Shown here in pieces: positions 4,915 to 34,499 of a stretch of DNA of 64,000 nt. Each line of letters begins with the position of its first letter. Within the stretch, counting starts at the first letter, position 1. This DNA is from Candidatus Angelobacter sp. (GTDB lineage Bacteria; Acidobacteriota; Terriglobia; Terriglobales; Acidobacteriaceae). The stretch spans positions 2,068-66,067 of the forward strand of contig DATGHX010000052.1 of assembly GCA_035307585.1 (NCBI GenBank), written 5' to 3'. A model generated the notes under the pieces. It did no database searches, was not told where the DNA came from, and saw nothing but the letters and a program-made list of their open reading frames with translations. The position numbers were made by a program, and so were the translations under genes.

Positions 4915-4956
4915 AGCAGTCTTGGTAATTGGCGTTGTCTCGTCGTGGAGGGAACG

Positions 4957-6039
4957 CTACCGGCTCTCCCACACAAAGGCGTCAAATCTGCGTTTGGTGG
5001 AGAATCCCAACCGGCGGTACAGGTCCACCGCTTTCACGTTGGCTTCGGTCACGGTGAGCGAGAGCGCGCTGAAGTGGCGCGCGCGCAGCTCCTGCGTGCA
5101 CAGGCCGATCAGAGACTCGCCGATCAATCGCCCGCGCTGCTCCGGCACCACGCAGACCTGGGTCACGTGGCCCACGTCGTCGCGGACGCGCGAGCACAGC
5201 AGCAGGCCGGCGATGGTCCGCGTGGAACGATGAATGGCTACAAACGAGGCGTTGGTTTCGAAGACGCCGCAGCCGGGGAAACGCACGATGTTGTTCAGGA
5301 AGCGGAGAGAGCCGTTCAGGCTGCGGTACTGGTCGTTGATTTCGGAATCGATGTGGCCGCGATAGCAGCCGGTGATGACGGCCGCGGCTGACTGAAAATC
5401 AGTCTCGGTCCAGCGGCGGTATTCGATATCCGGCAGGGAAGTAATTTTTGGCGGCGCTGCCAGCGACGACCGGTAGGAGTGCAGGTCGTGCCACTGAAGC
5501 GATGGAACGCTGCGCGACCCATCACTCGCGGAGTTCAAGGGCAGAACCATAAACAGCCGGGGATATTGGCAGAATCCTTCGCGCAAAAATGGCGCGCTCA
5601 GGGCTCCGCATTCGTGAGGCAGGAGCTGCGCCTCAATGCGCTGGATGCCGGGAGAGCGCTGCAGAGTCTCAATCACGTGGGTAGCCAGCCGGCATTCCAC
5701 GCTTTCCGCGGGAATTCCCGGTTCGCCGGGAAGCTGAATGGTGCCGTCGGCAAAGAGATCGCCGATCACGCCCTTGCTGCCTTCGTAGACGAAAAACGCG
5801 TAGCCGCCGATGCTGCCGTTCGCGACCGCGGCATAGCCGGGCAGGATCTTGGAATCGATGTAGCGCAGGATCATCTCCATGGAGGGGCGGTAATCCCACG
5901 ACATCAGCTGCGCCCACAGGCGGCTCTCGCGCTCCAGCAGCGGGCGCAGATGCTGCGCGCTGAAATGCCTGAGGTCGAGAATCTCAATCCCAAAGGCGCC
6001 GGGTGGACGGTGTGTTTCGATTGGAGTATGAAGGCCCAT
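4957..6039 (-). CDS. GNAT family N-acetyltransferase (two GNAT-like halves)
   Basis: QRGRLIGESLI...LSLTVTEANVKAVDLYRRLGF is a typical acetyl-CoA binding motif A region. The length of 360 aa suggests a tandem GNAT. Confidence 0.7.
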   Translation of the reverse strand: MGLHTPIETHRPPGAFGIEILDLRHFSAQHLRPLLERESRLWAQLMSWDYRPSMEMILRYIDSKILPGYAAVANGSIGGYAFFVYEGSKGVIGDLFADGTIQLPGEPGIPAESVECRLATHVIETLQRSPGIQRIEAQLLPHECGALSAPFLREGFCQYPRLFMVLPLNSASDGSRSVPSLQWHDLHSYRSSLAAPPKITSLPDIEYRRWTETDFQSAAAVITGCYRGHIDSEINDQYRSLNGSLRFLNNIVRFPGCGVFETNASFVAIHRSTRTIAGLLLCSRVRDDVGHVTQVCVVPEQRGRLIGESLIGLCTQELRARHFSALSLTVTEANVKAVDLYRRLGFSTKRRFDAFVWESR

Positions 6040-20005: not shown

Positions 20006-20088
<83 letters not shown>

Positions 20089-20128
20089 CAGGCAGTTAGA
20101 GTGAGTTTCCCCGATAATCCGCGCTGTC

Positions 20129-20151
20129 ACTTTAAGGACGACTTTAAGGAC
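20129..20151 (+). repeat. paired ACTTTAAGGAC direct repeats (arm-type recombinase site candidate, attL side)
   Basis: ACTTTAAGGAC at 20129-20139 and 20141-20151 (12-bp period), 41 bp inside the island from the core repeat. Confidence 0.4.
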
Positions 20152-20451
20152 CCAGCGAATTTCCTCACGGTGTCCCAGACGAGTTTGAGAAAAAGTTTGA
20201 GGACCTCTTACGGTTCAAAAGTCTATTCAATGCAGAACCGACTTGGTGCCGAAGAAGGGACTCGGCAGCGGTCGCGGAAAGCCCTCGTAAACAGTGGCTA
20301 AATCCTTGGTTATCAAAGACCCCTAGTTGGCCCATTTTGAGCAGGATTTCAGACGCCATTGAGTTGGCACGGCGGATTTATCAGAAGGATGAAGAATGAC
20401 TTTCCGCGTTAGAATGCGGAAGCAGACGCATCGCAGGAGTAAGCGCGAAAT

Positions 20452-23007
20452 ATGTTCGACAGGTCGGGCAACGATATGGAGCCGAGTTACAAAACCAGCG
20501 AAGAGGCATTCCAGGCTTTTCTAGCCTTAAAGGGTGATCTTCCAAAGTACGACCTGAGTGGTCAGACAGAAGCTGACACCAGAGCTCGCCTAATTACACG
20601 TTTGCTGACCGATGTCCTGGATTGGCAACCAGAACAGATCAAACGAGAAGAGCATGCCCATCCCGGATACATGGATTATGTGCTCCTAACGAATCGCCGG
20701 ATCGCGGTTGTAGAAGCGAAGCGATCAGGCGATGTTTTTCATTTGCCAAACGATCTTTCACGAGTTAAGAATCTCCGTCTCGCCGGTGTCGTGAGAACGG
20801 TCAAAAACCTCCAAACACACATTTCGCAAGTGTTTGGATATTGTTCCAACAACGGCATCGAATATGCGGTAGTGACGAATGGTCTTCAGTACGTGATTTT
20901 TCGAGCGATCCGCACTGATGGAATTCACATTGGTCAAGGACGCGTCATTGTATTCCCCAGCTTTGATGACATCGAGCAGCGGTTCGTTGAATTCTGGTCC
21001 CTCCTCGCAAGGCCCAATGTCGAAAACAATTCTCTCGTAAGAGCGTTCCAGCCCGATGCAGCGGTCTTGTTTCAGTACAAGCGATTGGCCGACCAGGTGC
21101 ACACTTATAGAGAAAAGGTTTCTCGAAACCGATTGAGTCGCGACCTTGAACCACTTTTAGCGGAATACATGGGAGAGATCGCGGGGGTCGAGCAAGCACC
21201 AGAAAAACTCAAACGGTTGTATGTAAGAAGCACCGCCCTTAGCGAGGTTTTAGAGGCTGTTGGTCAAAAGATTTCGCTGTCCCTTTCCGCGACCATCAAA
21301 CAATCGGGCAGAGTGATAGAGCCAAAAGCGACTGAAGAGTTGAAAAAAGGCCTGCAGCAGCAGGTTCAGTCACACGTGTCACTTCCCGTAAGATCGCAAG
21401 ATGTGCTTCTCCTCGGACGTGTTGGTTCGGGCAAAACCACATTTGTCACGCATTTCTTGACTGTTGATCTCGTGACGCTTCTTAAGGGGCACATCGTTGT
21501 TCAAATCGACTTTCGGCTCTTGGAAAAGGGAGGTCGTATTTCAAGCTTCTTTTACGATACCCTGCACAAGGTGCTTACAAAGAATCAACGATTCACTGAT
21601 TTGACTTCGAAGCAACTCAGACACATATATACTCCTGAAATTAGAGAGCTTTCGGTCGGTCCTCTGGCCGTTCTCGAACGCACTAATAAGAAGAGGTATG
21701 AAGAAAAAATTGCCGACTTTCTCATGGAGCAGTATAAGAAGCCAGAAATCCACTATGTAAGGGTTCTACGATACTTGGCTGAGAAACAAGGTGTTCGATC
21801 TTTTGTGTTTTTCGACAACGTAGACCAACACGATTTCGACTCGCAACAGGAGATATTTACCTTTGCTCACTCGGTAGCCGCGAAATGCCATGCATTCGCA
21901 ATAGTCACTATGTGGGAAGAGACGTTTATCCGGTCGAAACAAAAGGGAGCACTCTCGGCCTACCAGACGCCAGCCTACAGCGTACCGCCGACGAGCGTAG
22001 TGGACATTATTGTTCGCCGCCTCGAGTACATGGTAGACCAAATCAGAAGCGGCGGCCTGGCAAGGGCATTGATCATCAATCGTCAAAATACCCAGGATGT
22101 TCAAGACTTTCTGGAGCTTGTTCGTGTGTCATTGTTGCATGATAAGAAACGAGCACGGTTCTTTCTAGAGTCGATAGCGATGGGAAATTTGCGCAAAGCA
22201 ATGGACGTCTTCTCGTCTTTTCTCGTTTCTGGACATACGGACGCACTTAAGATGCTCGACACTGTTCGTGAGACCAGGGGCTATTTGATTCCTTTGCACG
22301 AATTCATAAAGTCTATCGGGTTGGGAGAATACCGTTTTTACTATGGTGATCTGAGCTATGTGCTAAATGTTTTTTCAATTTCAGACGAATCGCGCCCGTC
22401 GCATTTTACAAAGCTCCGACTCCTAGAGTACCTCTTTCATCACCGTAATCGTTCAACAGCACTCGGAATCGGGTTTATAGGGATTGATTTTATTCGCTCT
22501 GACTTTCAACGTATTGGCACAAGCGAAGCTGATCTGACAGAGTCGTTGAAAGTCTTGTCGCGATTTTTGTTGGTGGAGAATGATGTCTACGATGCGGACA
22601 GAACCGGCCATGGTTATCGGATCACCGCAGCAGGTCGGTATTACTTACGTTATTTAGTCAACAAATTCACATATCTCGATTTGGTGCTACAGGACACACC
22701 GATTGCAGACAATACTGCATTTGAAGAAATGAAGGACCTGCTTACCAGCCGGGAGTTGGAGGATAGATTTGCCCGCGTCGAAACCTTCTTAACCTACTTG
22801 CTCGCAGAAGAAGAGCGGGAGCATTCGGCAGTTCTCAGCACGAGTGAGTCCATTCCCCTTCGGCAGAAAATGATGCCACCCATAATTACCGATTTCCATT
22901 CGGACAAGGACTTCATTAGATCCAAAAGAAGGCGAAGGAGAAAGGGTGAGCCAACACCATACATATCGGAGGATCAAGAGGATTCTTCCGGAGCAACGGC
23001 CGACTGA
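20452..23007 (+). CDS. PD-(D/E)xK nuclease (HsdR-N/Mrr-like) fused to a P-loop NTPase (STAND/NACHT- or ORC-like) with a helical C-terminus
   Basis: 851 aa. N-terminus has TEADTRARLI..GYMDYVLL..IAVVEAKRSG..QVFGY..VVTNG. Walker A is LLLGRVGSGKTTF (aa 320-331) and Walker B-like is FVFFDNVDQ (aa 451-459). It is the only plus-strand gene of the island. Confidence 0.65.
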   Translation: MFDRSGNDMEPSYKTSEEAFQAFLALKGDLPKYDLSGQTEADTRARLITRLLTDVLDWQPEQIKREEHAHPGYMDYVLLTNRRIAVVEAKRSGDVFHLPNDLSRVKNLRLAGVVRTVKNLQTHISQVFGYCSNNGIEYAVVTNGLQYVIFRAIRTDGIHIGQGRVIVFPSFDDIEQRFVEFWSLLARPNVENNSLVRAFQPDAAVLFQYKRLADQVHTYREKVSRNRLSRDLEPLLAEYMGEIAGVEQAPEKLKRLYVRSTALSEVLEAVGQKISLSLSATIKQSGRVIEPKATEELKKGLQQQVQSHVSLPVRSQDVLLLGRVGSGKTTFVTHFLTVDLVTLLKGHIVVQIDFRLLEKGGRISSFFYDTLHKVLTKNQRFTDLTSKQLRHIYTPEIRELSVGPLAVLERTNKKRYEEKIADFLMEQYKKPEIHYVRVLRYLAEKQGVRSFVFFDNVDQHDFDSQQEIFTFAHSVAAKCHAFAIVTMWEETFIRSKQKGALSAYQTPAYSVPPTSVVDIIVRRLEYMVDQIRSGGLARALIINRQNTQDVQDFLELVRVSLLHDKKRARFFLESIAMGNLRKAMDVFSSFLVSGHTDALKMLDTVRETRGYLIPLHEFIKSIGLGEYRFYYGDLSYVLNVFSISDESRPSHFTKLRLLEYLFHHRNRSTALGIGFIGIDFIRSDFQRIGTSEADLTESLKVLSRFLLVENDVYDADRTGHGYRITAAGRYYLRYLVNKFTYLDLVLQDTPIADNTAFEEMKDLLTSRELEDRFARVETFLTYLLAEEEREHSAVLSTSESIPLRQKMMPPIITDFHSDKDFIRSKRRRRRKGEPTPYISEDQEDSSGATAD

Positions 23008-23012
23008 CTGTT

Positions 23013-24281
23013 TCAGCATTCCTCCGGCAACAGAGCCGTCGTCGCCGTCCGCTTGCCGTCATCCGCGCCTTTCTGGAAGTCTTGAGTTTGTTGTCGGGCG
23101 CTAATCGTCTCAACCGCACCTCGCAACTCATCGAGCGTAAAGTGTCCGTAACGAGCGGCCATCTGCACCGTGGTGCTAGGGCTCCAACCAACTATCTTGG
23201 CAATTTTCATCAGCGGTACGCCGGCGTCAATCATCCGCGAAACTGCTGTGTGGCGCAGATCGTGAAAGCGGCAGACAAGGGGTTGGATTTCATTTTCGTT
23301 GTCGTCGTCAGAACCCTCTGTCAATATCTCTGTTGCGCGAACCCTGGCTCTCTCCCAAGCCTCTTTCACGTCACCAACGGGGCGGGTCACGTCCAAGTCG
23401 TATGACATGCCCTCAGTGAATCCAAAGTGATCTTTCTTGCCTCCTCCTCCATACTTCTGAGTTGGAAACACGAAATGCTCAGGCTTACGGTCAGGAAATT
23501 CACTGGCCCAGAATTGAAGTGTTGCCATGGCACGAGGTGAGAGAGGGACAACTCGCCCTGTGCCTGCTTTGGTCTTGTCTTTCCCAAATTTCAGACAACG
23601 ATTTTGGAAGTCAACATTACCCCACTGGAGGGTTCTGATGACATTGAATCGCGCACCTGTTTCAAGGGCAAGTGTGACGAAGGGCAAGAGACAGCGAGAA
23701 CGTGAAAGAGAGCAAGCTTGGAGGAGGGCACGCTCCTCATCCACCGTGATTGCTCGTCCAACGTCATCTCTTACCGGTAGCATCCTCACGTTAGGTTGCA
23801 CCCGGGCCCACTGACCATGTTTCTTTAGGATTGCTCTCAAGGTCCCGATCTCAAGATTGATTGTTGCCGGTGACGCCCCCTCGCCAAGGCGTCTCTTTTG
23901 ATATTGGGAGATGTCTTCTGCGGTAATGTCTGATACAAGCTTCTTGCCTAACACCGGCAGCAGGTGAAGATCAAGGTTTGTGTTCTCAATTGTAAGAGAA
24001 GAGGCCGCGAGTGAAGTCTTCTTGGCTTCAAGATAGGCCTGGGCAGCAAACGACAGCAGTCTGGGAGCGTCAGGCTTGCGGATGCCGGTAAGGCCGGTCT
24101 CAAGCTCATACTTCCTCTTGGTCTGCACCTTTCTCGCTATTGTGAGTGAACGTGTCTTGGTCGATTCCTGAATCAGTGAGCCTTGAAAGTGAAATTGCAT
24201 CCACCAGATTTGTGATTTCTTTTTCTCACCAGTCTTTTGATCCCTGTATGTCGGCCTATAGAGCGCCATGAGCACCCCCAT
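23013..24281 (-). CDS. int: tyrosine-type site-specific integrase
   Basis: LALETGAR (catalytic Arg), RFHDLRHTAVS (H-x-x-R), IVGW, and the nucleophile Tyr in AARYGHF. Confidence 0.9.
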   Translation of the reverse strand: MGVLMALYRPTYRDQKTGEKKKSQIWWMQFHFQGSLIQESTKTRSLTIARKVQTKRKYELETGLTGIRKPDAPRLLSFAAQAYLEAKKTSLAASSLTIENTNLDLHLLPVLGKKLVSDITAEDISQYQKRRLGEGASPATINLEIGTLRAILKKHGQWARVQPNVRMLPVRDDVGRAITVDEERALLQACSLSRSRCLLPFVTLALETGARFNVIRTLQWGNVDFQNRCLKFGKDKTKAGTGRVVPLSPRAMATLQFWASEFPDRKPEHFVFPTQKYGGGGKKDHFGFTEGMSYDLDVTRPVGDVKEAWERARVRATEILTEGSDDDNENEIQPLVCRFHDLRHTAVSRMIDAGVPLMKIAKIVGWSPSTTVQMAARYGHFTLDELRGAVETISARQQTQDFQKGADDGKRTATTALLPEEC

Positions 24282-24320
24282 TTGTATACTGTTCTCGGGG
24301 CATGACTCGGGGGATGGTCA

Positions 24321-24941
24321 TCATTCTTTCCCACTCACGATCCGCTTGATCGTGTCCGGATGGACCCTGAAGAGTGGGGCAATTTCGGTCCATGTCTTGC
24401 CCTCACGCCTGAGTCGTTTGGCTTGTTCCTTCTGATCTGGCGTGAGGGATGATGGTCTGCCTCCAACGCGTCCATCTGCCCTGGCTTTGAGGAGACCTGC
24501 CTTTGTGCGTTCAGATATCCGGATCTTTTCTTGACGGGCGACCGCAGCAAGGATCCCTAGGACTGCATCGCGGAAAACACCAAGGCTGTCTAAATACTGT
24601 TCCGTAAAGCTTAGGTATCCGACGCCATAAGAGGTTAGCTGTTGGAGATAATTCAGCGTTGGCAGAACGCCTTCTCTGCTGAGTCGATCCAGCGACCAAA
24701 ACAGAAGCACATCAAACTTGCGCTGGCTTGCGTGGAGGAACATCTCTTTCTGTCTGGGTCGTTCAGCCTTTGCGCCGGAGCAGACATCCACGTATTCAGC
24801 AACAATTGCATATCCCTGACGCTGGCAGTATTCACGCAGTTGGGTAAGCTGATTTTCATTGTCCTGGTCCTTGGTTGACACCCGGCTGTAAAGAGCGACC
24901 CGCAAGCTGCTGGCCTGCGGGCCTATGGCCTGCGTTGTCAT
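24321..24941 (-). CDS. serine recombinase (resolvase/invertase type) with C-terminal HTH
   Basis: VALYSRVSTKDQDNENQ catalytic-Ser motif plus a C-terminal TWTEIAPLFRVHPDTIKRIV HTH. Start set at the ATG that overlaps the upstream stop (ATGA at 24938-24941). Confidence 0.85.
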   Translation of the reverse strand: MTTQAIGPQASSLRVALYSRVSTKDQDNENQLTQLREYCQRQGYAIVAEYVDVCSGAKAERPRQKEMFLHASQRKFDVLLFWSLDRLSREGVLPTLNYLQQLTSYGVGYLSFTEQYLDSLGVFRDAVLGILAAVARQEKIRISERTKAGLLKARADGRVGGRPSSLTPDQKEQAKRLRREGKTWTEIAPLFRVHPDTIKRIVSGKE

Positions 24942-25327
24942 TTCTTCCCCCAACCGCACTCAACGGCAATTTTCATGATCGCCAGACAATCAGTCCTGAG
25001 AGTTGCGATGGTGCTCTTTCTCTTCTCAACGTCCGCTGCGTCCCAACCGCCATCAATAAGCATTTGTGAGATTTCGTCCACAGTGTTCTCTGGGTTTTGC
25101 AACACGAGTCTGCGTGTAGTTGTCGAGATAGACGGAGTTTTCGGGTTGTCGTCCTTCACCTTCTGTGGAGGTGCGGATTGACTTGGCGAAGCATGAGTCT
25201 TATCCACGGGTGCGGCAGGCGCAGCTGTCTCGGGTTGAGCTGACTGCGCTGGCTCTGGAGCAACTTGCTCATCGTGCTTGTGATTCTTTTTCGCGTTTTC
25301 TTTTTTCTTCACGATTCCACCTCTCAT
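24938..25327 (-). CDS. hypothetical protein (Lys/Pro-rich N-terminus)
   Basis: 129-aa ORF, first gene of the apparent 129aa-resolvase-integrase string. No motif recognised. Confidence 0.45.
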   Translation of the reverse strand: MRGGIVKKKENAKKNHKHDEQVAPEPAQSAQPETAAPAAPVDKTHASPSQSAPPQKVKDDNPKTPSISTTTRRLVLQNPENTVDEISQMLIDGGWDAADVEKRKSTIATLRTDCLAIMKIAVECGWGKK

Positions 25328-25358
25328 ATTTACTAAATAGTAACTACTGATGCGTTAC

Positions 25359-25387
25359 GTATAAGTACCGCACCGGGAAGAAGTCAA
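25359..25387 (-). promoter_or_regulatory. sigma70-like promoter candidate (TTGACT-17-TTATAC)
   Basis: Minus strand reads GGTTGACTT, then a 17-nt spacer, then TTATAC, about 30 nt upstream of the ATG at 25327. Confidence 0.3.
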
Positions 25388-25842
25388 CCTTTTTCTTTGG
25401 CAAAAACGAAGATTTTTTCCTTATGTAATCGAGAAATGAGAACTGCTTTGTTTTCAGGAGGAGTTAATCAGAACTTTTAAATACGTTTTTGCTTGCCAGG
25501 CTGAACAACTCGAAGCGGGGAGAATTTCACGATGATTTGCTGCCTATCTCAGCGGCATCACAAACGAGGGGGCGGAAGTCACACGGGTTCGGCCTTGATC
25601 CAACAGCTACCCATGACAACTCACTGCTCGTCTATGTTTGTTTTTCTTGTTGTTCTCAAGTTTCTTTTACAGGAGCTTCTGGCGTGAAAAACTCAGGCGT
25701 GGTTTTTTAATTGTGGTAACTTTTTTGTGAGTTGTCGCCCATCTTTGCGTTGCTCATTCTGCGACATGCTCTCGTACCAGCCAGCACCTATCCCTAGCGC
25801 AGCGCCCAAGTAAAGCCATCACGCTGGTAATCTGAAACGGGT

Positions 25843-25881
25843 CACAAAGAAATGAGGGCAGTGCTGAATTCACTACCCTCA
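25843..25881 (-). terminator. rho-independent terminator candidate
   Basis: Imperfect 11-bp stem TGAGGGCAGTG/CACTACCCTCA (one mismatch) with a 7-nt loop. Followed on the minus strand by TTTCTTTGTG, about 60 nt after the stop at 25942. Confidence 0.4.
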
Positions 25882-25941
25882 TCCCTCCCGCCGCCTCCCA
25901 TCAAAAGGAAGATGATTGATGGGGCAGGAAACTTTAAATTC

Positions 25942-26388
25942 TCATATGCAGAGCCCCTCACGCAGGCATAGCATTTTCTCCTCAGCAAATGTCGCTAGCG
26001 CCTGATTGAATTCTTTGAGTGCATTGCCAACTCTCTCCCGCAGCATCTGCTCAGTTAGAGTGTCTCCGATCGGTAGCCTCATCTCGTGCACGACGTCGAG
26101 CGATGAAAAGTTGATGCCGCGATTCCTGTTCTTGGCTAGAAACTCGGCGTGCTCATTGGTAGCTTCCTGGAGGGACGCATCAGTTTCTTTGACCCTTTGC
26201 AATGCGATCTCGAACCGCTCGCGCGCGGTAAGTTGGACAGCCGGGGGTGTCTCTTTGATTTGCTTCCGTGGTAGCAGGCCCATTTCAATATCCCCTGTGT
26301 GGTTCACTTTCAGAAAACGAGTGAGCCCGACGCTGAGAAGCAGCTCCTCCAGATAAAACGGGTTAATGTTTTGGGCAAACCGGATCAT
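25942..26388 (-). CDS. hypothetical protein
   Basis: 148-aa ORF starting 9 nt after the stop of the upstream 80-aa ORF. No motif recognised. Confidence 0.5.
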   Translation of the reverse strand: MIRFAQNINPFYLEELLLSVGLTRFLKVNHTGDIEMGLLPRKQIKETPPAVQLTARERFEIALQRVKETDASLQEATNEHAEFLAKNRNRGINFSSLDVVHEMRLPIGDTLTEQMLRERVGNALKEFNQALATFAEEKMLCLREGLCI

Positions 26389-26397
26389 GTGAAAAAC

Positions 26398-26640
26398 CTA
26401 ACCCGCCTTCTGATATGACGGTTCAACGACATTGAAATCAGCATTGATTCGTTTACCCAACCCAAAAACGGTTCTGTTTTCTGGATTGTCACGCACGACA
26501 ATGTTGATTTGCTCATCCAGCCTCTCAAACCCGACGTCGCCAGACAGACGATTGAAATCAGGGTAAAGCGTAATGATGAGACGTTCTTTGATCGCAAGTG
26601 ACTGAGCGACTTTAATCACTACGAAAGATATGTTGAACAT
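26398..26640 (-). CDS. hypothetical small protein (80 aa)
   Basis: Internal ATG at 26640 is preceded by a GGAGAG SD. The longer ORF-track version would run through a terminator hairpin. Confidence 0.4.
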   Translation of the reverse strand: MFNISFVVIKVAQSLAIKERLIITLYPDFNRLSGDVGFERLDEQINIVVRDNPENRTVFGLGKRINADFNVVEPSYQKAG

Positions 26641-26712
26641 TTCACTCTCCAGAAATAGAGGTGCTGATTGAGCAGGTTCTCTGAAGCAGCACCTCCACTT
26701 TTTCCTGCAACA

Positions 26713-26754
26713 GGAGAAAACTTTAAAGAGGTGGAGATGGGTACCCTCCACCTC
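26713..26754 (-). terminator. rho-independent terminator candidate
   Basis: Perfect 9-bp stem GAGGTGGAG/CTCCACCTC (26728-26754) with a 9-nt loop, followed on the minus strand by TTTAAAGTTTTCT. Confidence 0.45.
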
Positions 26755-26887
26755 TGCTTTCGCCACCAATCGCCTTGGTCATCGCTTCGACTAACCCCTG
26801 TTGAGCTGCATTAGCCTCGCTTGCAAGTCACCCTCTGCATCAGAGGGTCATTCAACTGGCGGCGAAAAACCCTACCGTTTCTCGCCA

Positions 26888-27082
26888 CTACCTCAAGTCA
26901 GAACTGCGAGCACTTGCAGTTGGCCCGTTAAACTGGGTTCGGTCTCGGCTGCAACGTAGGCTGTCGCCCACCACATGCACCAGATCACTCAGACCACATG
27001 TCGGGCAAGGAGCAATCCTTGGGAGTGCGGTGACTTTTGCATGTTGAACAGTTGGGATCGATTCAACCGACGTTTTACTCAT
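26888..27082 (-). CDS. small Cys-containing (zinc-ribbon-like) protein
   Basis: 64 aa containing CPTCG...LRCSRD. Its ATG overlaps the stop of the upstream small ORF (ATGA). Confidence 0.4.
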   Translation of the reverse strand: MSKTSVESIPTVQHAKVTALPRIAPCPTCGLSDLVHVVGDSLRCSRDRTQFNGPTASARSSDLR

Positions 27083-27255
27083 CTCTCACTCCCTCTCTCC
27101 TTGAGCAATTTCTCAATGCTGATCAATCGCAGCAAAATTGCAGCCTGAATCTTGAGGTGATGAGCGTTGATGGTCTCGGCAATATTCTGAGGTGGGAAAA
27201 TGCCTCCTTTTTCCCACTGACCATCTGCAAGTGCTTTTAGCTGCTCGTCGTCCAT
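27079..27255 (-). CDS. unlisted 58-aa ORF (below the ORF-track length cutoff)
   Basis: Hand translation gives MDDEQLKALADGQWEKGGIFPPQNIAETINAHHLKIQAAILLRLISIEKLLKERGSER. A GAGGGTGAT SD-like sequence precedes the ATG. It fills the gap between two coupled genes. Confidence 0.35.
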   Translation of the reverse strand: MDDEQLKALADGQWEKGGIFPPQNIAETINAHHLKIQAAILLRLISIEKLLKERGSER

Positions 27256-27262
27256 ATCACCC

Positions 27263-27709
27263 TCAGTTTGCGTCTCTTGCAGCTTCGACTAGTGCGCCCT
27301 TCATCAACAACCGAAATTTGCCGACTTCTTGGGCAAATCTCTCCGGAGTAAATACTTGATTCATCTGAGCAAAAAGTTTGGTCATCTGAAGTGTCAACCG
27401 CGCCCTTGCGCGCTCCTTTGCAGTTGGCAGTTCGGAACGAAACCCCCCGTCATCATCCACGCCCAACTGAATCTCGCCCAGCATCTTGGTGACGTCTGCA
27501 TCCCTCAGCTCGTCGCGAGTTAGTGATTTCGTGATGCTTGGGCCAAACAGTGCTCGGATATCCGCGCTTTCGGGGCTGAGAGCCTGTTGCCGGTTGTAGT
27601 CAACAAGACCTGCCCTCGTCATCGGCAGCTCACCATCATCAATGAGTGGAGCCTCATCATCCAAACCGGCCAAAAGATCTTCTAAATCAAATGGGACATC
27701 GTTTTTCAT
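27263..27709 (-). CDS. acidic hypothetical protein (148 aa)
   Basis: ATG at 27709 preceded by GGAGGAAG, 4 nt after the upstream stop. N-terminus is rich in D and E. Confidence 0.5.
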   Translation of the reverse strand: MKNDVPFDLEDLLAGLDDEAPLIDDGELPMTRAGLVDYNRQQALSPESADIRALFGPSITKSLTRDELRDADVTKMLGEIQLGVDDDGGFRSELPTAKERARARLTLQMTKLFAQMNQVFTPERFAQEVGKFRLLMKGALVEAARDAN

Positions 27710-27713
27710 GAAA

Positions 27714-28118
27714 TCAACTTCCTCCGCTTTCCTGATCAATTGCAACAGAGGCAACAGTCGTGATGGTTCTCTGTTCCACATTCACTAACTTTTGGTACAA
27801 CTTGTGAACCGCGCTCTGCCCGCCGTTGCCTTCTGGCACCATCTCGAAATATCCGTGGAACATGTGGGAAAAGTTTGCCTCACCTATCGTCTCCCTTATT
27901 TCCCTGAAAGCGAAAACTGATCCCCTCAAAGCTGCCTGGATGAGATGGTCACACAGTAACTCTGCGTATGTTTTTCCCGATCCAGAATCCACCTGTTCCA
28001 ATTTTTGTCTTAGGGCGGTTCTGAGAAGGGCTGTTCGCGGTCGTCCACCAGGGTTCCCCGAGACGCCCTTTAACCCGTCGCGCCACGTCAGCCTGCCGCT
28101 TTGAGTGTCACCGTCCAT
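27714..28118 (-). CDS. GNPGGRP-motif protein (DUF5681 / small-terminase-like family of phages and mobile elements)
   Basis: SGNPGGRPRTALL followed by a helical region. The family assignment is from motif recall only. Confidence 0.45.
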   Translation of the reverse strand: MDGDTQSGRLTWRDGLKGVSGNPGGRPRTALLRTALRQKLEQVDSGSGKTYAELLCDHLIQAALRGSVFAFREIRETIGEANFSHMFHGYFEMVPEGNGGQSAVHKLYQKLVNVEQRTITTVASVAIDQESGGS

Positions 28119-28437
28119 TTCGAAACTCCTTCAGCGCGAAACCTTCAAATTGCGAATGGGGCAGGTTTCTCCTCTGACGTGGTCTAAAGAAATCACGGCG
28201 CACAAATTCCTTGCGAAGTTCCTCTTGAATACGAGGCGATAAGTCCACGATGTCGAATGGCCGCCGGCCAATCAAAATTGAAGGCCCCATCACATCGTGG
28301 CCAATTTCGTGGAAGAGACAACCATGGATGGTTACGTCGCCATCGTCAGATTGAAAAACCAACGAGAATCTTTTCAAGGCGGGATTGGCAAGAGGTTTCG
28401 TATCGGCGACAACGCGAAGCCGGAAATCCACGTACAT
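28108..28437 (-). CDS. hypothetical protein
   Basis: 109-aa ORF overlapping the next gene by 11 nt. No motif recognised. Confidence 0.4.
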   Translation of the reverse strand: MYVDFRLRVVADTKPLANPALKRFSLVFQSDDGDVTIHGCLFHEIGHDVMGPSILIGRRPFDIVDLSPRIQEELRKEFVRRDFFRPRQRRNLPHSQFEGFALKEFRNGR

Positions 28438-28540
28438 TTACGTATGTGGCTTTTTTAAAAAAGTCAACCTCGAAAACAGAGGTGAAACGGGGAATTCCAA
28501 AAATAATTTTGTAAGCTAAGAGGCTCTTCTCAAAGCTCAA

Positions 28541-29215
28541 TCACTTTTCCATTTGGAGCAGCGATGTATATCTTAGAACTTGACCAATAAACCTGTGTTT
28601 GCCTCGCGCCTTCGAGTTGAGCCACCAATATGGCCCAAAATTGAGGGCCAGATAACCAGCTGATCCAACGCCGACCCAAAATACACTTATCTCATATTGT
28701 GAGTAGGGCATTCTAAATTGGTCCTCAATGATTTCTTTTGGCACATCTTTCAGCAGAAACGATGCAGCCGCGATAATGAAGGCTATCGTTTGACGGCCGG
28801 TGAATTCAATCCGATCTCTCTGAAGTGAATCATGAAGGCTTGCTAACTTATCAAAATCATAAGCTGGATATCGAGCGATCAGTTCACTTGACAAAGAGTG
28901 AACCACATAATCAGACGCGCACACGCGGTAAAAGTCAGAGCGCTTATCCTCGTCTGATGCCGTGGCGTAAACATCGTGTATAACGTCGATCTTCTTCCCG
29001 CTGAGTAAATCCCTGCTAGGCGTAAAAGTCCCATGCACTATCCGCCACGTGAAGCGGATAGGATGCCTGAACATGTTCTTAGCCCAGTATCTTTTCCATA
29101 GGCGCGCCCACAGCTGCCGCCGGAAATCCTCGTAAGCAGTCAAGTACGAGACGACATTGTCAAGTTGTTCTTGCAGATTTGGACTTGCGGGAGTCTGTTG
29201 CGGTTGTGAAGCCAT
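28541..29215 (-). CDS. hypothetical membrane protein with two C-terminal TM helices
   Basis: 224 aa. Hydrophobic segments are IAFIIAAASFLL and ISVFWVGVGSAGYLALNF. The N-terminal ~140 aa are soluble and unrecognised. Confidence 0.55.
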   Translation of the reverse strand: MASQPQQTPASPNLQEQLDNVVSYLTAYEDFRRQLWARLWKRYWAKNMFRHPIRFTWRIVHGTFTPSRDLLSGKKIDVIHDVYATASDEDKRSDFYRVCASDYVVHSLSSELIARYPAYDFDKLASLHDSLQRDRIEFTGRQTIAFIIAAASFLLKDVPKEIIEDQFRMPYSQYEISVFWVGVGSAGYLALNFGPYWWLNSKARGKHRFIGQVLRYTSLLQMEK

Positions 29216-29272
29216 TTTGCAGCATTCTGCTCGAAAACAACCTGTTTCGCAAGGGTCATGGGTCTCACGATC

Positions 29273-30019
29273 TCAAGGCTGTTCGCCAAAAGTCGATTTT
29301 GTTAGCGCATTTGTCCCTGCCGCCTTAGCTGCTTTCTTCTCACGAGATTTCCCAAGCAGATTCCATGGGGGTTGAATTACGCGGATTAAACCCCCCTCCA
29401 ATCCCGCTGCGGTATTGACAGGAAGACCGTGCCATTCATAGGAATTCTCAGGCTTGGCGGTTAGCACTTTTACTTGTTTGCCTGCTGCCAATTCTGAGGC
29501 AATGAGTTTCTTGATTCTCGCGCTGGTTTTTTGCCGTTCATATCCGCGACGGTAATGCCCCATTCGCGTTCTGAATCCCCGCTGTGCTAACCCGACATAT
29601 ACAACCAAGTCGTCAACCAGGAACGCATACACCCCTGCCGCCGTCGGCGCTTTGGCGCTGAGTTTCAATTCGCCATCTCCGAGCGCAATCCAGTCACCAA
29701 GATATTCAAACCCGGCACGAAGGAGCGCATCGCCTGGCGTCGGCTTAGGAGGCTTTGCGTCGACTTCGATCGTTACGGGAGGTCGCTCAAATTCCTCTTT
29801 GTGCTTGAGGCCTCCAGTGATTCCAGCATCGAGCAGTACCTTGCGGACATGCTGGTATCGAATATCCAAAATCTCAGCAATCTCAGCGCGCTTATAGCCA
29901 GCTTGATTAAGGGCGCGGATCTTGTCTGACTTTGTTGTCAGGCCTTGGATCACGGTGTCGGGCGTGGGGCGCTGCACTCTGTTCACTCCTCTCTCGTTTC
30001 GAAAAGGCAGTGAGAACAC
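29273..30019 (-). CDS. HTH + GIY-YIG nuclease domain protein
   Basis: N-terminal HTH-like KIRALNQAGYKRAEIAEILDIRYQHVRKVL. The C-terminal half has GVYAFLVDDLVVYVGLA ... RTRMGHYRRG ... LEGGLIRVIQPPWN (GIY-x9-YxG, then Arg, Glu, Asn). Confidence 0.65.
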   Translation of the reverse strand: MFSLPFRNERGVNRVQRPTPDTVIQGLTTKSDKIRALNQAGYKRAEIAEILDIRYQHVRKVLLDAGITGGLKHKEEFERPPVTIEVDAKPPKPTPGDALLRAGFEYLGDWIALGDGELKLSAKAPTAAGVYAFLVDDLVVYVGLAQRGFRTRMGHYRRGYERQKTSARIKKLIASELAAGKQVKVLTAKPENSYEWHGLPVNTAAGLEGGLIRVIQPPWNLLGKSREKKAAKAAGTNALTKSTFGEQP

Positions 30020-30043
30020 GCGCTACTAGAATTGACCATCACG

Positions 30044-31354
30044 TTATGTCTTCCTCGAATGGTGGATAAGAACTAGCGCGTCTAATATGTGTTCGGCGAG
30101 TTGACACGCCTGCTCCATCACTCTGAGATTTGCTTTCCAAAAGGACGTTGATGCGGGGCGAAGTTTCGCACGTGAGAACTCTGCGAGAACGTCCACCAAC
30201 TGCTGATCTTTCATATGCACACCTCTGCCTCTTGTTTCTCTGAAAGGCAAGAAGAGGCGAATCTTGTCCGCCCGGACATTAGCCTGCGACAGATCCACCT
30301 CAACCGTTGAATCGAAGGGTAAAACGTGATGAAACGCGTAGCTCCTCGCATTGGAGACAATTGACTGATATTCGCTGAGTTTTTCTTTGCGGCCCAAAGC
30401 CGACCACGGCAACGCTGCAAACGCCCTGTACAGCGCCCAGTGCTGCTTGATCGTGCACCAAAACACTAAGGGTTTTAGATCGCAGATGCTGGTAAACAAT
30501 GAGATCAAGGGTACTGTGTCGCTGCTGAAATTATAGGCAAGCCTCAAGACCTCGTTCAGGGATTTTGAGTCGTCCGGTAACTCTTCAAGCTTCTTCAAGG
30601 CTTCTTTGTATTCATCTGCCTGGTTACGAAGAGAGGCCAAGATTTTCCCAAGCACTGTATCATCGGGGTGATGAACGCCAGCCGTTGGGAGGACGACATC
30701 TGTTATGGCTGCGTCACTGAGTCGATCGTAAACATCGGCGATGGCTCGGCTGCTTTCGAGTGATAGCCCCCCTTCTTTCTCCAAATCGCGTGCAATCACC
30801 TCGAGTAAATCTTCCGGAGGCACTATTTTTTTTATTGCATACACGCCTGGTGCGATTCTTTGAATGTCTGGATCTGGCAGAGATGGCAGCAGGCGAAGCT
30901 CCTTGACCGAAGCGGTCTCGACCTTGTGCGCATCTGGCCGCAGTCCTTTCATCGTGCCAATGAGCACAAAGATCAAATCTCCAACTGTCGCAAGTTCCTG
31001 AGCAACAGCGTCAGTGAGAGAAATCAGGTGCGCAGTCTCCTTTGTAGACAGAACCTTGTAGTGGTTCTTGACGCTAGTGTCGTCGCAGGCAGAAATCCTG
31101 CCCACCGATACCTTCTTCCCCGTAGCCGACAATTCCACGACTATTCGTCTCTGGGATTGATTTGTTTTAAAGATCTGTTTCTCTCTCGAAAGAAATGAGC
31201 TGTTTATTGCCAGATATGTCGTCGTGTTCCTGCCGATCGTGGCCCTTCCAATTTCATCAAATACTGAAGCCATTTGCTGGACGACCGAATCTACGGCTGA
31301 AAGGATCTTGTTTTCTATCTGGGTGTTAGCTACCGACCTGACATTCTGACTCAT
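30044..31354 (-). CDS. hypothetical 436-aa protein
   Basis: Long uninterrupted ORF with AT-rich, island-type codon usage. No P-loop or methyltransferase motifs. The only match is a weak R-x4-H (NARSYAFHH). Confidence 0.6.
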   Translation of the reverse strand: MSQNVRSVANTQIENKILSAVDSVVQQMASVFDEIGRATIGRNTTTYLAINSSFLSREKQIFKTNQSQRRIVVELSATGKKVSVGRISACDDTSVKNHYKVLSTKETAHLISLTDAVAQELATVGDLIFVLIGTMKGLRPDAHKVETASVKELRLLPSLPDPDIQRIAPGVYAIKKIVPPEDLLEVIARDLEKEGGLSLESSRAIADVYDRLSDAAITDVVLPTAGVHHPDDTVLGKILASLRNQADEYKEALKKLEELPDDSKSLNEVLRLAYNFSSDTVPLISLFTSICDLKPLVFWCTIKQHWALYRAFAALPWSALGRKEKLSEYQSIVSNARSYAFHHVLPFDSTVEVDLSQANVRADKIRLFLPFRETRGRGVHMKDQQLVDVLAEFSRAKLRPASTSFWKANLRVMEQACQLAEHILDALVLIHHSRKT

Positions 31355-31513
31355 GTTGAGCCTATTATGTCTCGAAGTTACCTCCCGTTTGTTCGCCGAA
31401 ACGCACCTTTTCGCTATTTGGAAAATGGCTGTCTAATGGGGCGCTAAAAAATAGGCTGCTAATGAATACTCACGTTCTGCTGGGCCGCTACGCCTATGAT
31501 GGGAGGAATTCCC

Positions 31514-32068
31514 CTACACAATTGCCGAACCGCCTGCGCGGCGCGAACGCCGCGCTCTATGGCGTTTCAGAGACTGCCGTTCGTTCTTGTTTTTTGGCTC
31601 ATAACCGGGCGCGAAAAGGTAAATATTGTCTGATAGTGCCCAATCACAATGCTCATCATCTCTCTTTTTGAGAATGTAACCAATTCCATTCTTTGAAAAA
31701 TCGTAGGCCTCAACTTTGGCGTTCCCGACCATCCCTCCCCAGCGCTCTTGAATTCCCGCAGCAGAAAGAGGGGCATTGCTCAGGAGGATGCAGTGGAGAT
31801 GCCGTTTCACTTTGAAATTCGAAAGGCCGCTCAATGACATCTCCTCCGCCATGATGTAAGCAATATTCTCTCGGTAGCGCCAACGGCAGGAGAGGATATT
31901 CGCGAAATCTGAAAATGTCCTTCTGGCTTGTTGATGATCCGCTTGGTCTCGGAATGTGAATGTGCAATAAAGGGAACACTTTGCGTCGCGGATAATATCC
32001 TGGTACCACTCTTTTTCATCAGCAGTTAAAAACCGGAGAGACCTGTAAGGTGAGTGTGAGGAAGACAT
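31514..32068 (-). CDS. minimal HUH-superfamily Rep/relaxase-like endonuclease
   Basis: Three motifs in canonical order and spacing: CTFTFR (motif I), RHLHCILLS (HUH), GIGYILKK (Y-x-x-K). Start set at the ATG, Met3 of the ORF. Confidence 0.55.
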   Translation of the reverse strand: MSSSHSPYRSLRFLTADEKEWYQDIIRDAKCSLYCTFTFRDQADHQQARRTFSDFANILSCRWRYRENIAYIMAEEMSLSGLSNFKVKRHLHCILLSNAPLSAAGIQERWGGMVGNAKVEAYDFSKNGIGYILKKRDDEHCDWALSDNIYLFAPGYEPKNKNERQSLKRHRARRSRRAGGSAIV

Positions 32069-32400
32069 GCCCAATGTCCTTTGCTAACTGAATGTGGACC
32101 GCTATTGCCTACTGGTCTCTCTGTCAAGCAGCTTCGTGAACTCGCTACTCAGCATCGCGCTATAAACCAGTAACCCATGTCCCATTCAATTCTCCAACTG
32201 CGTCTGACTTGAATCTTCTCGAAGGTTTCAGACAATGGAGAATCCAAGAGCGCCATCGCGCTTGTCGTCACTCTCTGGAGTCGAGAGAAATAGAGAGCAA
32301 GGTGGACATTGGGCATGAAGACCTTGCTCTCCATCTCAACTCAGAAGCAAAGCTCTCTTCGGCTGTCAGGCCGGTTGGAGCTGCTTCCATTTCTTGTTGC

Positions 32401-32429
32401 TTATAAAATCCTCCTTTGCCAAAAGTCAA
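32401..32429 (-). promoter_or_regulatory. sigma70-like promoter candidate (TTGACT-17-TTATAA)
   Basis: Minus strand reads GGTTGACTTTT, then a 17-nt spacer, then TTATAA, upstream of the Rep-like gene block. Confidence 0.3.
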
Positions 32430-32437
32430 CCGCTGCA

Positions 32438-32590
32438 CTAGGAAATCTTTGAGCCGTTATAACTTGCTGCAGTGGCATTCTCCGAGCTTATGTAGTCGTC
32501 ATCGAACCACTGCGGTTCTGGCATTTCCTGCTGCTGGCGAGAGTTGCCCTGGTCGTCGTACTGTTCAAAATCGAGATTTGGGTCATTCAT
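32438..32590 (-). CDS. unlisted 50-aa highly acidic ORF
   Basis: Hand translation gives MNDPNLDFEQYDDQGNSRQQQEMPEPQWFDDDYISSENATAASYNGSKIS. Starts 13 nt after the upstream stop, with a weak SD. Confidence 0.25.
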   Translation of the reverse strand: MNDPNLDFEQYDDQGNSRQQQEMPEPQWFDDDYISSENATAASYNGSKIS

Positions 32591-32603
32591 GGTCTTTACT
32601 CGA

Positions 32604-33113
32604 TCAAGCAAGGTCGCTGGCTTCTTTTTTGCCAGGGAGAGTTACCTGTTCCCAGTTGATCTGCTCCCCTACCAGCGGGATGAAGCTTGGCTTCCCTGGA
32701 AGATCCCAGAGATCGATAAACTCACCTGTTTTGGGGTTCGTGATGTGAAGTTGGGTTGGGTTACCATCGTCATCCCACACATGATGCGGTTGGCGTGGGT
32801 CATTGGGCCCTAAGTGATAGGTTCCTTGGACATACTCAAACTGGACGTTTGGGGACAGTTTGAATATAACAGCCTCCTTCAGTTCATCAATGAACTCAGC
32901 ATCGATGCAGTAAGCTTCGATATAAAGCGCATCATGAACGAGTTTTACATAACCAGCCGCCGTCGTCCCAATATCGCCTACTCCGAACCAGACATCTGTT
33001 GGCTCATCTGTTTCTTCATATGTTTTGAGCAGTTGGAGGGCCTGCTCTTTGGTCCATTTATGGATCGCGTCTGGGTCACCTAGATCGCGATACCTGGTTT
33101 TCGTTTGTTGCAT
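32604..33113 (-). CDS. hypothetical protein
   Basis: ORF with ATG at 33113 (Met17) preceded by AAAGGAAG. No motif recognised. Confidence 0.45.
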   Translation of the reverse strand: MQQTKTRYRDLGDPDAIHKWTKEQALQLLKTYEETDEPTDVWFGVGDIGTTAAGYVKLVHDALYIEAYCIDAEFIDELKEAVIFKLSPNVQFEYVQGTYHLGPNDPRQPHHVWDDDGNPTQLHITNPKTGEFIDLWDLPGKPSFIPLVGEQINWEQVTLPGKKEASDLA

Positions 33114-33182
33114 TTTTCGCTGTCTTCCTTTCTGTTCAGTCGCGGTCCAACTGAGCGCCATTTACATCGAGGCGAATTCGTA

Positions 33183-33425
33183 CTAGCCTTTTCTCACCTT
33201 CGCAGGTACTATGTTCTGCCGAATCAAATCCTCAATGGCCTCGCGGCGAAACCTGATGAGGCGACCGATTCGCACGTATTCGATCTGCTTAAACAGCACC
33301 CATTGCCGAAGGCCAGATTCCGTCAGTCCCAGGGCCTTAGCAGCCTCACGAACGGACAGCAGTTTCTGAGTCGCAAGCTCTCCCACGGTCAAGAACCCTC
33401 TCAAGGCTGTATACCGTCTCTTCAT
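33183..33425 (-). CDS. xis: excisionase-family (AlpA/Xis-type) HTH DNA-binding protein
   Basis: LLSVREAAKALGLTESGLRQWVLFKQIEYVRIGRLIRFRREAIEDLI matches the excisionase-type HTH pattern. Confidence 0.75.
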   Translation of the reverse strand: MKRRYTALRGFLTVGELATQKLLSVREAAKALGLTESGLRQWVLFKQIEYVRIGRLIRFRREAIEDLIRQNIVPAKVRKG

Positions 33426-33626
33426 TTCACATTCCGTACTTTGCCGTGAAATATTTTGTCCGGACGTCTACCTCCTGCTTCTTAATTTCGCCGCCTCTCG
33501 CCTAAGGGAAGGGAGGGCCGAACTCATTAGACCGTGAGTGTCGGCCCTCATTTCAGGCGGGCGATGTTGATTTATTGAAGCCCTGAGGCTGGTAACAGAA
33601 CAAGCTTTGTTTTGGCAGGGAAACTG

Positions 33627-34280
33627 TTACGTTTTGTTCTTACCGGACTTAGATCGACGCGGGAAAAGGTGACCACGTTGCTTAATTGTCTTCAAATATT
33701 TCACGCCGATTTTCTTGGAAAAAACCGCGCTGATGAGAACAGATAGCGTGGAGTAATTCGTGCTGCCAGTTCTTTCCTCCACGATCCTCACCACATAAGC
33801 AATCTGCGACCAAGCTGTCACGGTGCGCATTCCCGCCCGTACCTTCTTTTCTGCTTCGAGGCACTCATGGATAACACGCGCAGTCTTGTGAATGAGGTCG
33901 GGAACAATATCGCCATTTTGCTTGATGTGCATCGACGAGATTAAGAGGAAACGATGTGCTTCCTCATTCTGATAGCAGTATTCCAAGTCATCTACCAATC
34001 TCGTCAGCTGTTTTCGTACGTCCCTCCTGAGAAGTGCAGGCTGCCGCCCGCCATAAGGCAATCTCCGCAGTCGAAGCAAGTTTCTTTCTAGCCACTCTGG
34101 ATCGCAATTCTGATTGCAGAGCCGGTCAAAAGCGTTCTTGACGGGGCCGCGCTCGATCCGAAGTCTTCGATGGAAGCTCCGCTGCCACTCAAGCATCTGC
34201 TCATAGCCTAGCAATGCAACTTTGTTTCTGCTCGACACAACACCCTCCCTTGGGCGTTTGAGATTTAAACAGCTAATCAA
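33627..34280 (-). CDS. hypothetical protein (start uncertain)
   Basis: 217-aa ORF, the first gene inside attR. The TTG start lies within the ACTTTAAGG repeat, so the true start may be at the next in-frame Met (Met29). Confidence 0.4.
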   Translation of the reverse strand: MISCLNLKRPREGVVSSRNKVALLGYEQMLEWQRSFHRRLRIERGPVKNAFDRLCNQNCDPEWLERNLLRLRRLPYGGRQPALLRRDVRKQLTRLVDDLEYCYQNEEAHRFLLISSMHIKQNGDIVPDLIHKTARVIHECLEAEKKVRAGMRTVTAWSQIAYVVRIVEERTGSTNYSTLSVLISAVFSKKIGVKYLKTIKQRGHLFPRRSKSGKNKT

Positions 34281-34300
34281 CTTTAAGGGGTACTTTAAGG
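34280..34300 (+). repeat. paired ACTTTAAGG direct repeats (arm-type recombinase site candidate, attR side)
   Basis: ACTTTAAGG at 34280-34288 and 34292-34300, with the same 12-bp period and orientation as the attL-side pair. Confidence 0.4.
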
Positions 34301-34446
34301 AGTCGAGAAAGAAATCGACGGCACGTGACGGTAAATGACGGTAGTCGAAAAATCAAGCTAAGTCGTTGACTCTAAATGGCAACCGCCAATTTTGTCTTGG
34401 CGCTTCAAGAGTTTACAATCTGTCAGGAGAGCACGAAGAATTCTGC

Positions 34447-34499
<53 letters not shown>

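Follow-up and report, generated by a model that had tools for sequence, protein, structure and literature searches.

The window analysed here is a 64,000-nucleotide (nt) stretch of Candidatus Angelobacter sp. DNA (Acidobacteriota; contig DATGHX010000052.1 of assembly GCA_035307585.1), in which three consecutive genes, referred to below as A, B, and C, are found close together on the minus strand. The original prediction, made from the letters of the DNA, had compared them to the layout of a sensor/effector defence or abortive-infection system. Gene A (30044-31354) encodes a protein of 436 amino acids (aa). Gene B (29273-29977) encodes a 234-aa protein with an N-terminal helix-turn-helix (HTH) region and a C-terminal GIY-YIG nuclease domain of the T4 endonuclease II type, and gene C (28541-29215) a 224-aa ORFan confined to its lineage, in which two C-terminal stretches are marginally hydrophobic. 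The interval lies among the accessory (cargo) genes of an integrative element of 14.4 kb located at a tRNA-Asn gene. The families of the three genes do not occur together elsewhere, and it is A that is strongly associated with defence loci.

The three co-directional open reading frames (ORFs) were recovered by ORF analysis as first described, with gaps of 24 nt between A and B and 57 nt between B and C, when B is read from a GTG at 30019 as a 248-aa protein. While the longer frame is indeed open, the true start of B is most likely the GTG at 29977, 14 codons downstream, because homologues begin there, a Shine-Dalgarno sequence (GAGAGGAG) is found 8 nt upstream, and public gene calls give a protein of 234 aa; the gap between A and B would then be 66 nt. 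A terminator-like hairpin followed by a T-run (28467-28483, minus strand) lies 58 nt past the stop codon of C, ahead of the gene o109, and is the only such site on the minus strand among the three genes. The number of terminator-like sites in the region is not above shuffled expectation, and only the position of this hairpin after C is suggestive. Promoter-like sites do not exceed the chance rate in the intergenic regions, including upstream of A, and no operator-like inverted repeat stands out there. The spacing, the shared strand, and the terminator-like site after C only are compatible with a co-transcription of A, B, and C.

Regarding the distribution of the three families, about 42 loci harboring A homologues were considered, 36 of them genomic, from at least six phyla, and six metagenomic. 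The 10-kb flanks were searched by tblastn with B, C, and twelve other proteins of the island, and no relative of B or C could be found at any of the 36 genomic loci, nor at the six metagenomic ones. When B and C were compared with every co-directional ORF downstream of A, using phmmer without filters, the scores were negative throughout. Conversely, relatives of A or C are absent from all 36 genomic B loci and from the approximately 40 B loci overall, plasmid and metagenome contexts included. The copies of B on plasmids and its closest metagenomic relatives lie in contexts differing from one another, and the ORFs found 3' of B homologues are related neither to each other nor to C, a tyrosine recombinase being the only recurrent one. 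C was also considered as a divergent member of a conserved family of ~200-aa co-directional partners downstream of B; this was rejected because the sole recurring cluster is the tyrosine recombinase, several of the ORFs are spurious frames of high GC, and no resemblance to C was seen in any of them. The complete trio was found again only in four contigs from other samples, which are 100% identical to the window island at the nucleotide level and are therefore from the same organism.

One related element, L041, was found for the window island, and it harbors A without B or C. The proteins common to both elements are 71% (integrase), 61% (A), 55% (o129), 41% (o109), 40% (xis, an 80-aa HTH_17 excisionase-like gene within the island), and 39% (DUF5681) identical. 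The backbone genes o109 (28108-28437, minus strand) and DUF5681 (27714-28118, minus strand) bound a variable slot: the space between A and o109 is taken up by B and C in the window and, in L041, by an HTH_3 gene together with an ORF of 91 aa. A search for further sister elements, anchored on the integrase, gave 86 new loci, i.e., 87 scanned together with L041. Nearly all of them have another layout, with xis ~1 kb upstream of the integrase gene, and the backbone is common to L041 and, in part, to L048 only. Neither B nor C is found at any of the 87 loci, and A is found in L041 only.

These distributions bear directly on the hypothesis of a single three-component defence or abortive-infection system, in which A would be a sensor or a HEPN effector, B a DNase effector of the GIY-YIG type, and C a membrane protein. 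The hypothesis draws on the shared strand, the gaps of 24-66 and 57 nt, and the hairpin placed after C only, on the fact that all three genes are mobile-element cargo, and on the presence of defence genes near A and, in some loci, near B. Against it stand the zero co-occurrence over the A and B loci, which is the very outcome that the original prediction had named as contrary to its proposal, the lack of any homologue of C in 5.8 billion proteins, which leaves one component family within a single lineage, and the existence of L041. Moreover, the A proteins have a uniform length, and in many different operons they are complete with no partner gene. None of the three proteins matched a hidden Markov model (HMM) of PADLOC-DB v2.0.0 at E<=1, in agreement with the initial statement that no named system fits. 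A three-gene system is thus refuted as a conserved unit, since only identical copies of the island carry the trio and the families do not co-occur elsewhere, and a single three-component machinery is very improbable.

The defence character proposed for the interval holds mainly for A, with its R-M (restriction-modification) and other anti-phage neighbours, and does not extend to the three genes as a unit. In four metagenome-assembled genomes from four phyla (Actinomycetota, Bacteroidota, Omnitrophota, and Acidobacteriota; loci L007, L010, L016, and L019), A lies within a type I R-M operon, preceded by hsdM and hsdS. The A gene overlaps the upstream hsdS by 4 nt in L007, L010, and L019 and follows it after a 3-nt gap in L016, and hsdR is found 3' of A in L007 and L019 and ahead of hsdM in L016. 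The order in L019 is hsdM-hsdS-A-(GmrSD)-hsdR; the R-M subunits of this locus were confirmed with Pfam, those of L007, L010, and L016 being assigned through blastp clusters with L019. Other A homologues are found in a BREX-like locus, flanked by a DUF6079/BrxC-like protein and a methylase (L006), or adjoining Type ISP enzymes (L017 and L018), a CHAT protease (L034), the Lamassu protein LmuA (L001), or AbiV (L037). Hachiman (HamA together with a DEAD helicase) adjoins A homologues in two independent loci (L169, 8296-12505, and L039, 916-4253), and on a conjugative element (L166) A is clustered with TIR, Fic-HTH, GmrSD-HNH, and MmeI genes.

Among the 114 nearest neighbours of A, the commonest Pfam families are all R-M families. 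As an internal control, 129 neighbours of B were collected by the identical procedure and yielded integrases, coupling proteins of type IV secretion systems (T4SS), and ParA instead, so that the R-M and defence signal is specific to A. By our count, a recognised defence gene is found within 5-7 kb at at least about 20 of the 42 A loci; about half of the loci, the window included, have no adjacent R-M system.

Some overlaps and neighbours at these loci can be mentioned separately. In L169, the A gene overlaps at its end with hamA. In L168, a T4SS-bearing element, the stop codon of the A homologue lies in the overlap with a 218-aa ORF (4438-5094), which matches no Pfam family, has no relationship to B or C, and could be a local partner. 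DUF4238 proteins are found beside the closest relative of B (L173, 479-856) and beside two A homologues, and DUF4238 may represent another unstudied defence-island family.

The A family is compact and is not covered by the current Pfam, NCBIfam, and PADLOC models. A word-index search returned 140 relatives, all unnamed, and an exhaustive profile search over 1.84 billion representatives returned 396 representatives at E<=1e-3, of which 210 reach E<=1e-30. Full-length members have ~415-445 aa and show no domain fusions among the 150 matches listed. No match to A was obtained in Pfam, PADLOC, NCBIfam, or PHROG, including the P-loop and methyltransferase families of Pfam, whose motifs had rightly been reported as missing from A. 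Pfam also gave nothing for 28 further relatives (29 members with A), the A profile gave nothing among PDB sequences, and no copy of A is found in plasmid and phage records. The AlphaFold2 model of A (predicted local distance difference test, pLDDT, 86; predicted template modelling score, pTM, 0.82) displays an N-terminal alpha/beta domain (~1-230) and a C-terminal helical domain (~230-436), the latter reaching a pLDDT of 74.5 when modelled alone. With Foldseek, only generic helical bundles at E>0.05 were returned, whether full-length A was compared with PDB and BFVD or the C-terminal domain alone with PDB.

Conservation within the family was assessed over 121 full-length representatives having a median identity to A of 26%. 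Residues R57, D292, and R337 are conserved in 100% of them, K323, F341, and H342 in 99%, K294 and D383 in 98%, and N338 in 95%, the window copy having Ser at this last position. The best-conserved motif of the family is R-N-x-x-F-H, found in the window as R337-S-Y-A-F-H342 (codons 30329-30346, minus strand; HEPN-like R-[N/S]-x-x-F-H). It corresponds to the R-x4-H in NARSYAFHH already noticed in the original prediction; the motif is present as described but cannot be called weak, as it was then, R337 and H342 being invariant in the family. According to the model, the C-terminal domain comprises helices 234-258 and 263-293, an extra helical insert (295-320) after this second helix, a helix 326-342 that ends in the motif, a loop/hairpin, and a helix 403-434. 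A reading of D279...D292-x-K294 as a PD-(D/E)xK nuclease site was rejected because D279, D292, and K294 are in predicted helices and not in strands.

The signature of HEPN ribonucleases (RNases) is R-x4-6-H with a polar residue (N, D, or H) following the R, and in the HEPN census the motif is positioned where a helix ends and the loop leading to the last helix begins (PMC3710099). The family motif of A conforms to this signature, and its modelled position, at the C-terminal end of helix 326-342 and ahead of the loop/hairpin and the long last helix, would agree with the census. The R-M-embedded context is likewise typical of HEPN proteins, with at least 16 R-M-linked HEPN clades known and the linkage of PrrC with PrrI discussed (PMC3710099). 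No profile or fold similarity to known HEPN families was obtained for A with Pfam, with the profile search of PDB, or with Foldseek against PDB and BFVD. Because every homology and fold method failed, the assignment of the C-terminal domain of A as a very divergent HEPN-type RNase is given roughly even odds.

The same evidence can be read differently: A would belong to defence islands without being a HEPN RNase, and would be a new enzyme or a non-catalytic sensor or adaptor whose fold is not in PDB. A confident model (pLDDT 86) that matches no fold in PDB or BFVD is consistent with this, as are the lack of any HMM link to HEPN despite the many HEPN families in Pfam and the invariant R57, D292, K294, K323, and D383, all outside R-x4-H. 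However, the best-conserved motif is precisely R-N-x-x-F-H, with the canonical polar residue after R and, according to the model, in the canonical helical place, the operon context is that of HEPN proteins, and Foldseek is weak on small helical bundles. A non-HEPN protein is accordingly kept as a tentative reading of A.

In the prr locus, whose layout is hsdM-hsdS-X-hsdR, the HEPN anticodon nuclease PrrC is kept latent by the type I enzyme. The A family can be found in the same gene order, with A as the X gene overlapping hsdS (L007, L010, and L019; L016 is similar). As in PrrC and RloC, the C-terminal domain is helical and contains a conserved R-x4-H, and A is a single gene without dedicated antitoxin. 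Unlike PrrC and RloC, A and its 28 relatives have no P-loop or ABC ATPase domain, the N-terminal alpha/beta domain is unrelated, and no sequence or fold similarity is detectable. Embedding in a type I R-M operon is found for the four loci named above and not for A of the window.

A second comparison can be made with the stand-alone HEPN modules of BREX loci, for which a role as auxiliary or backup effectors has been described (PMC12839542). A resembles such BREX- and R-M-linked effectors by its embedding in the BREX-like locus L006, by its vicinity to Type ISP, MmeI, and GmrSD enzymes, and by a motif that, with its predicted position, fits the HEPN definition. It differs from them in that it is much larger (~430 aa) than a bare HEPN module, is recognised by no Pfam HEPN model, and has a conserved N-terminal domain without fold match. 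A would best be seen as a new member, still without a name, of a class that is already known, the stand-alone effectors linked to R-M.

As to its mechanism, the most likely one would be that A is a latent, metal-independent RNase of the HEPN type with a role in second-line defence or abortive infection, the N-terminal domain serving as sensor or regulator of the C-terminal effector domain. The analogy is with PrrC and RloC, which are silenced by the R-M enzyme embedding them. It is possible, although still doubtful, that A founds a single-gene anti-phage family of ~400 clusters in at least six phyla, joining a new sensor domain to a divergent HEPN-like RNase; such a protein would be a backup effector with translational coupling to type I R-M, a P-loop-less functional analogue of PrrC that could also work alone on mobile elements.

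By its sequence, B is a bona fide GIY-YIG nuclease, solitary and without conserved partner. The nuclease domain (29354-29662, minus strand; residues ~120-222 in the 248-aa numbering) contains GVY131, Y141-V-G, R152, E208, and N220, so that the GIY...YIG hairpin and the catalytic Arg, Glu, and Asn of the superfamily are all present. In the alignment of B homologues, the core reads GVY-x9-YVG, R152 and E208 are invariant, N220 is conserved at >=90%, and PPWN is present, as had been proposed. B matches the 'endonuclease' family phrog_1111 (1.8e-11), and its best solved match is T4 endonuclease II (2wsh, 1.9e-9), UvrC-N and Hpy188I being weaker. The HTH region (29792-29935, minus strand; residues ~29-76), also part of the original prediction, gives weak but consistent matches to HTH_Cbp1, the HTH of DNA invertases, and other HTH PHROGs, and its 'IRYQHVRKVL' segment is strongly conserved. 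In the word-index search, the B family comprises 343 clusters of ~212 aa, which NCBI names 'GIY-YIG nuclease family protein'. Besides Hyphomicrobiales and Acidobacteriota, to which the relatives mainly belong, one cyanobacterium and one deltaproteobacterium are represented, with identities of 55-69%. B is found on 23 plasmids, 11 of them conjugative, and in no phage record. One of its relatives, the metagenomic protein P0122 (395 aa), has the HTH-GIY-YIG unit tandemly duplicated.

B was also considered as the R subunit of a type II R-M unit and rejected, no adjacent cognate methyltransferase being found: no methyltransferase domain was detected in the 13 island proteins scanned, and none is recurrent among the 129 neighbours of B homologues. 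The earlier view that the cassette is no classical R-M unit is therefore maintained. B is similar to T4 endonuclease II (DenA) and to enzymes of the Hpy188I/Eco29kI class in its GIY-YIG core, where Tyr, Tyr, Arg, Glu, and Asn are conserved. Unlike these, it has an additional N-terminal HTH, is borne by cells and mobile elements and not by phages, and, compared with the GIY-YIG restriction enzymes, is devoid of a cognate methyltransferase in its island or beside its homologues.

A solitary nuclease with such neighbours could also be a selfish gene, and B, with C, might be a homing-endonuclease-type insertion between A and o109 that spreads itself. This agrees with the identities of 55-69% across Acidobacteriota, Alphaproteobacteria, a cyanobacterium, and a deltaproteobacterium, with the variable neighbours, mostly integrases, T4SS, and ParA, among which B is always solitary, with the other filling of its slot in L041, and with a phage nuclease, T4 endonuclease II, as nearest solved relative. 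By contrast, phage-borne copies and an intron or intein context are both missing, and the domain order in B, with the HTH N-terminal and the nuclease C-terminal, is the reverse of that in I-TevI and the Seg enzymes. No insertion scars or target-site duplicates were found, L041 being too divergent for such a comparison. Furthermore, two B loci are in clusters of defence and toxin-antitoxin genes, one with Shedu, AbiGi, and a zeta toxin, the other with DUF4238, Mrr, HipA, and BrnT. A selfish insertion is thus unlikely as the explanation of the B and C slot, although B may either cut competing or incoming DNA or behave selfishly. In the preferred reading, B would be a solitary HTH-guided DNA nuclease, mobile among the plasmids, conjugative elements, and islands that several phyla carry.

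C matches only itself among 5.8 billion proteins, has no match in the plasmid collection, and belongs to no family in Pfam, PADLOC, NCBIfam, or PHROG. The two C-terminal transmembrane helices first ascribed to it are found as hydrophobic stretches (143-156 and 176-199), but their strength is marginal, the best 19-residue Kyte-Doolittle means being 1.34 and 1.32 against a usual cut-off of 1.6. C is probably a real gene, since an ORF of 224 codons is unlikely to stay open by chance (~2e-5 per start at ~48% GC, by our estimate) and since it is annotated as a gene in public assemblies. It would best be regarded as a lineage-specific ORFan.

The mobile-island setting that had been proposed for the three genes is well delimited. 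The tRNA-Asn gene (20006-20080) is overlapped in its 3' part by attL, a 58-nt direct repeat (20031-20088, plus strand), whose second copy, attR (34442-34499, plus strand), is 97% identical and forms the right end of the island, where it coincides with a GC step. The GC content is 48-53% inside the island (~20 to 34.5 kb), compared with ~61% outside. A direct repeat of the 3' part of the tRNA gene at either border, an internal recombinase, and a compositional break are thus combined, as in tRNA-targeting integrative elements. The island recombinase is a tyrosine integrase (23013-24281, minus strand), which a serine resolvase (24321-24959, minus strand) directly adjoins. An Rfam scan found the tRNA alone. 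A contig of 14,415 nt, L172 (Logan SRR5579864, equal to 20062-34476 of the window), was considered as an excised circle and does not constitute evidence for excision, because it ends ~30 nt into each att repeat, as a break in a k=31 assembly graph (de Bruijn) gives.

Compared with tRNA-integrated islands and integrative mobilisable elements with defence cargo, the island is alike in its tRNA-Asn target, the 58-nt att repeat, the tyrosine integrase, the HTH_17 excisionase-like gene, the low GC, and a cargo that differs between relatives. Unlike in typical tRNA islands, the integrase gene is set back from the att end, separated from tRNA-Asn/attL by a gene for an 851-aa AAA_16 NTPase (20452-23007, plus strand), and a serine resolvase lies beside the tyrosine integrase. 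The 851-aa protein shows a weak N-terminal match to HSDR_N_2 (restriction-nuclease-like), matches phrog_14719 (unknown function, 3e-102), and has no PADLOC match. A homologue, 23% identical, is found in L016 (2156-4534), beside the type I R-M operon that also holds an A homologue. The NTPase gene is possibly a second defence cargo gene of the island.

Upstream of A, a 186-aa protein (31514-32074, minus strand) has a weak match to REP_ORF2-G2P, a rolling-circle replication protein family (E=5e-5), which is sub-threshold with regard to the Pfam cut-off; the genes of L041 at this position are unrelated to it. This neighbour raises the question whether A, B, and/or C belong to the element backbone (replication, mobilisation, or regulation) and not to its cargo. 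A lies directly downstream of the Rep-like gene and is kept at the same relative position in L041, the single sister element found, and the HTH of B resembles those of recombinases. On the other hand, A is found in chromosomal R-M, BREX, and Hachiman loci of at least six phyla where no element backbone is present, and B and C are missing from L041 as from all other integrase-relative loci, with A in L041 only. A backbone role is extremely unlikely in these circumstances.

Taken together, the interval is probably composed of three functionally independent cargo genes in the variable slot of a tRNA-Asn integrative element, A being a stand-alone member of a defence-associated family; the probability of this reading can be set at about 0.7. 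Several points weigh against it. The link of A with defence is one of guilt by association, the evidence from context being associative throughout. The RNase assignment draws on the motif, its helix position, and the context, no profile or fold method tying A to HEPN or to anything else, and the near-invariant R57, D292, K294, K323, and D383 might make up another active site. No R-M system adjoins A in the window, and therefore a PrrC-like guard relationship cannot apply literally there. In addition, the spacing, the strand, and the terminator-like site after C only fit co-transcription, and a functional coupling of the three genes that is specific to this lineage would be compatible with the data.

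With regard to the annotation of such islands, the A-B-C unit should not be catalogued as a system, and the close packing of cargo genes within a mobile element argues only weakly for a functional one. A, in contrast, is a testable lead and a good single-gene defence candidate, as an unnamed family found in the position of PrrC in type I R-M operons of four phyla. If A is truly an RNase dependent on R337 and H342 that protects from phage, the second-line effectors linked to R-M would gain a further family, and A would then offer a simple model, free of an ATPase domain, for the silencing and triggering of such effectors.

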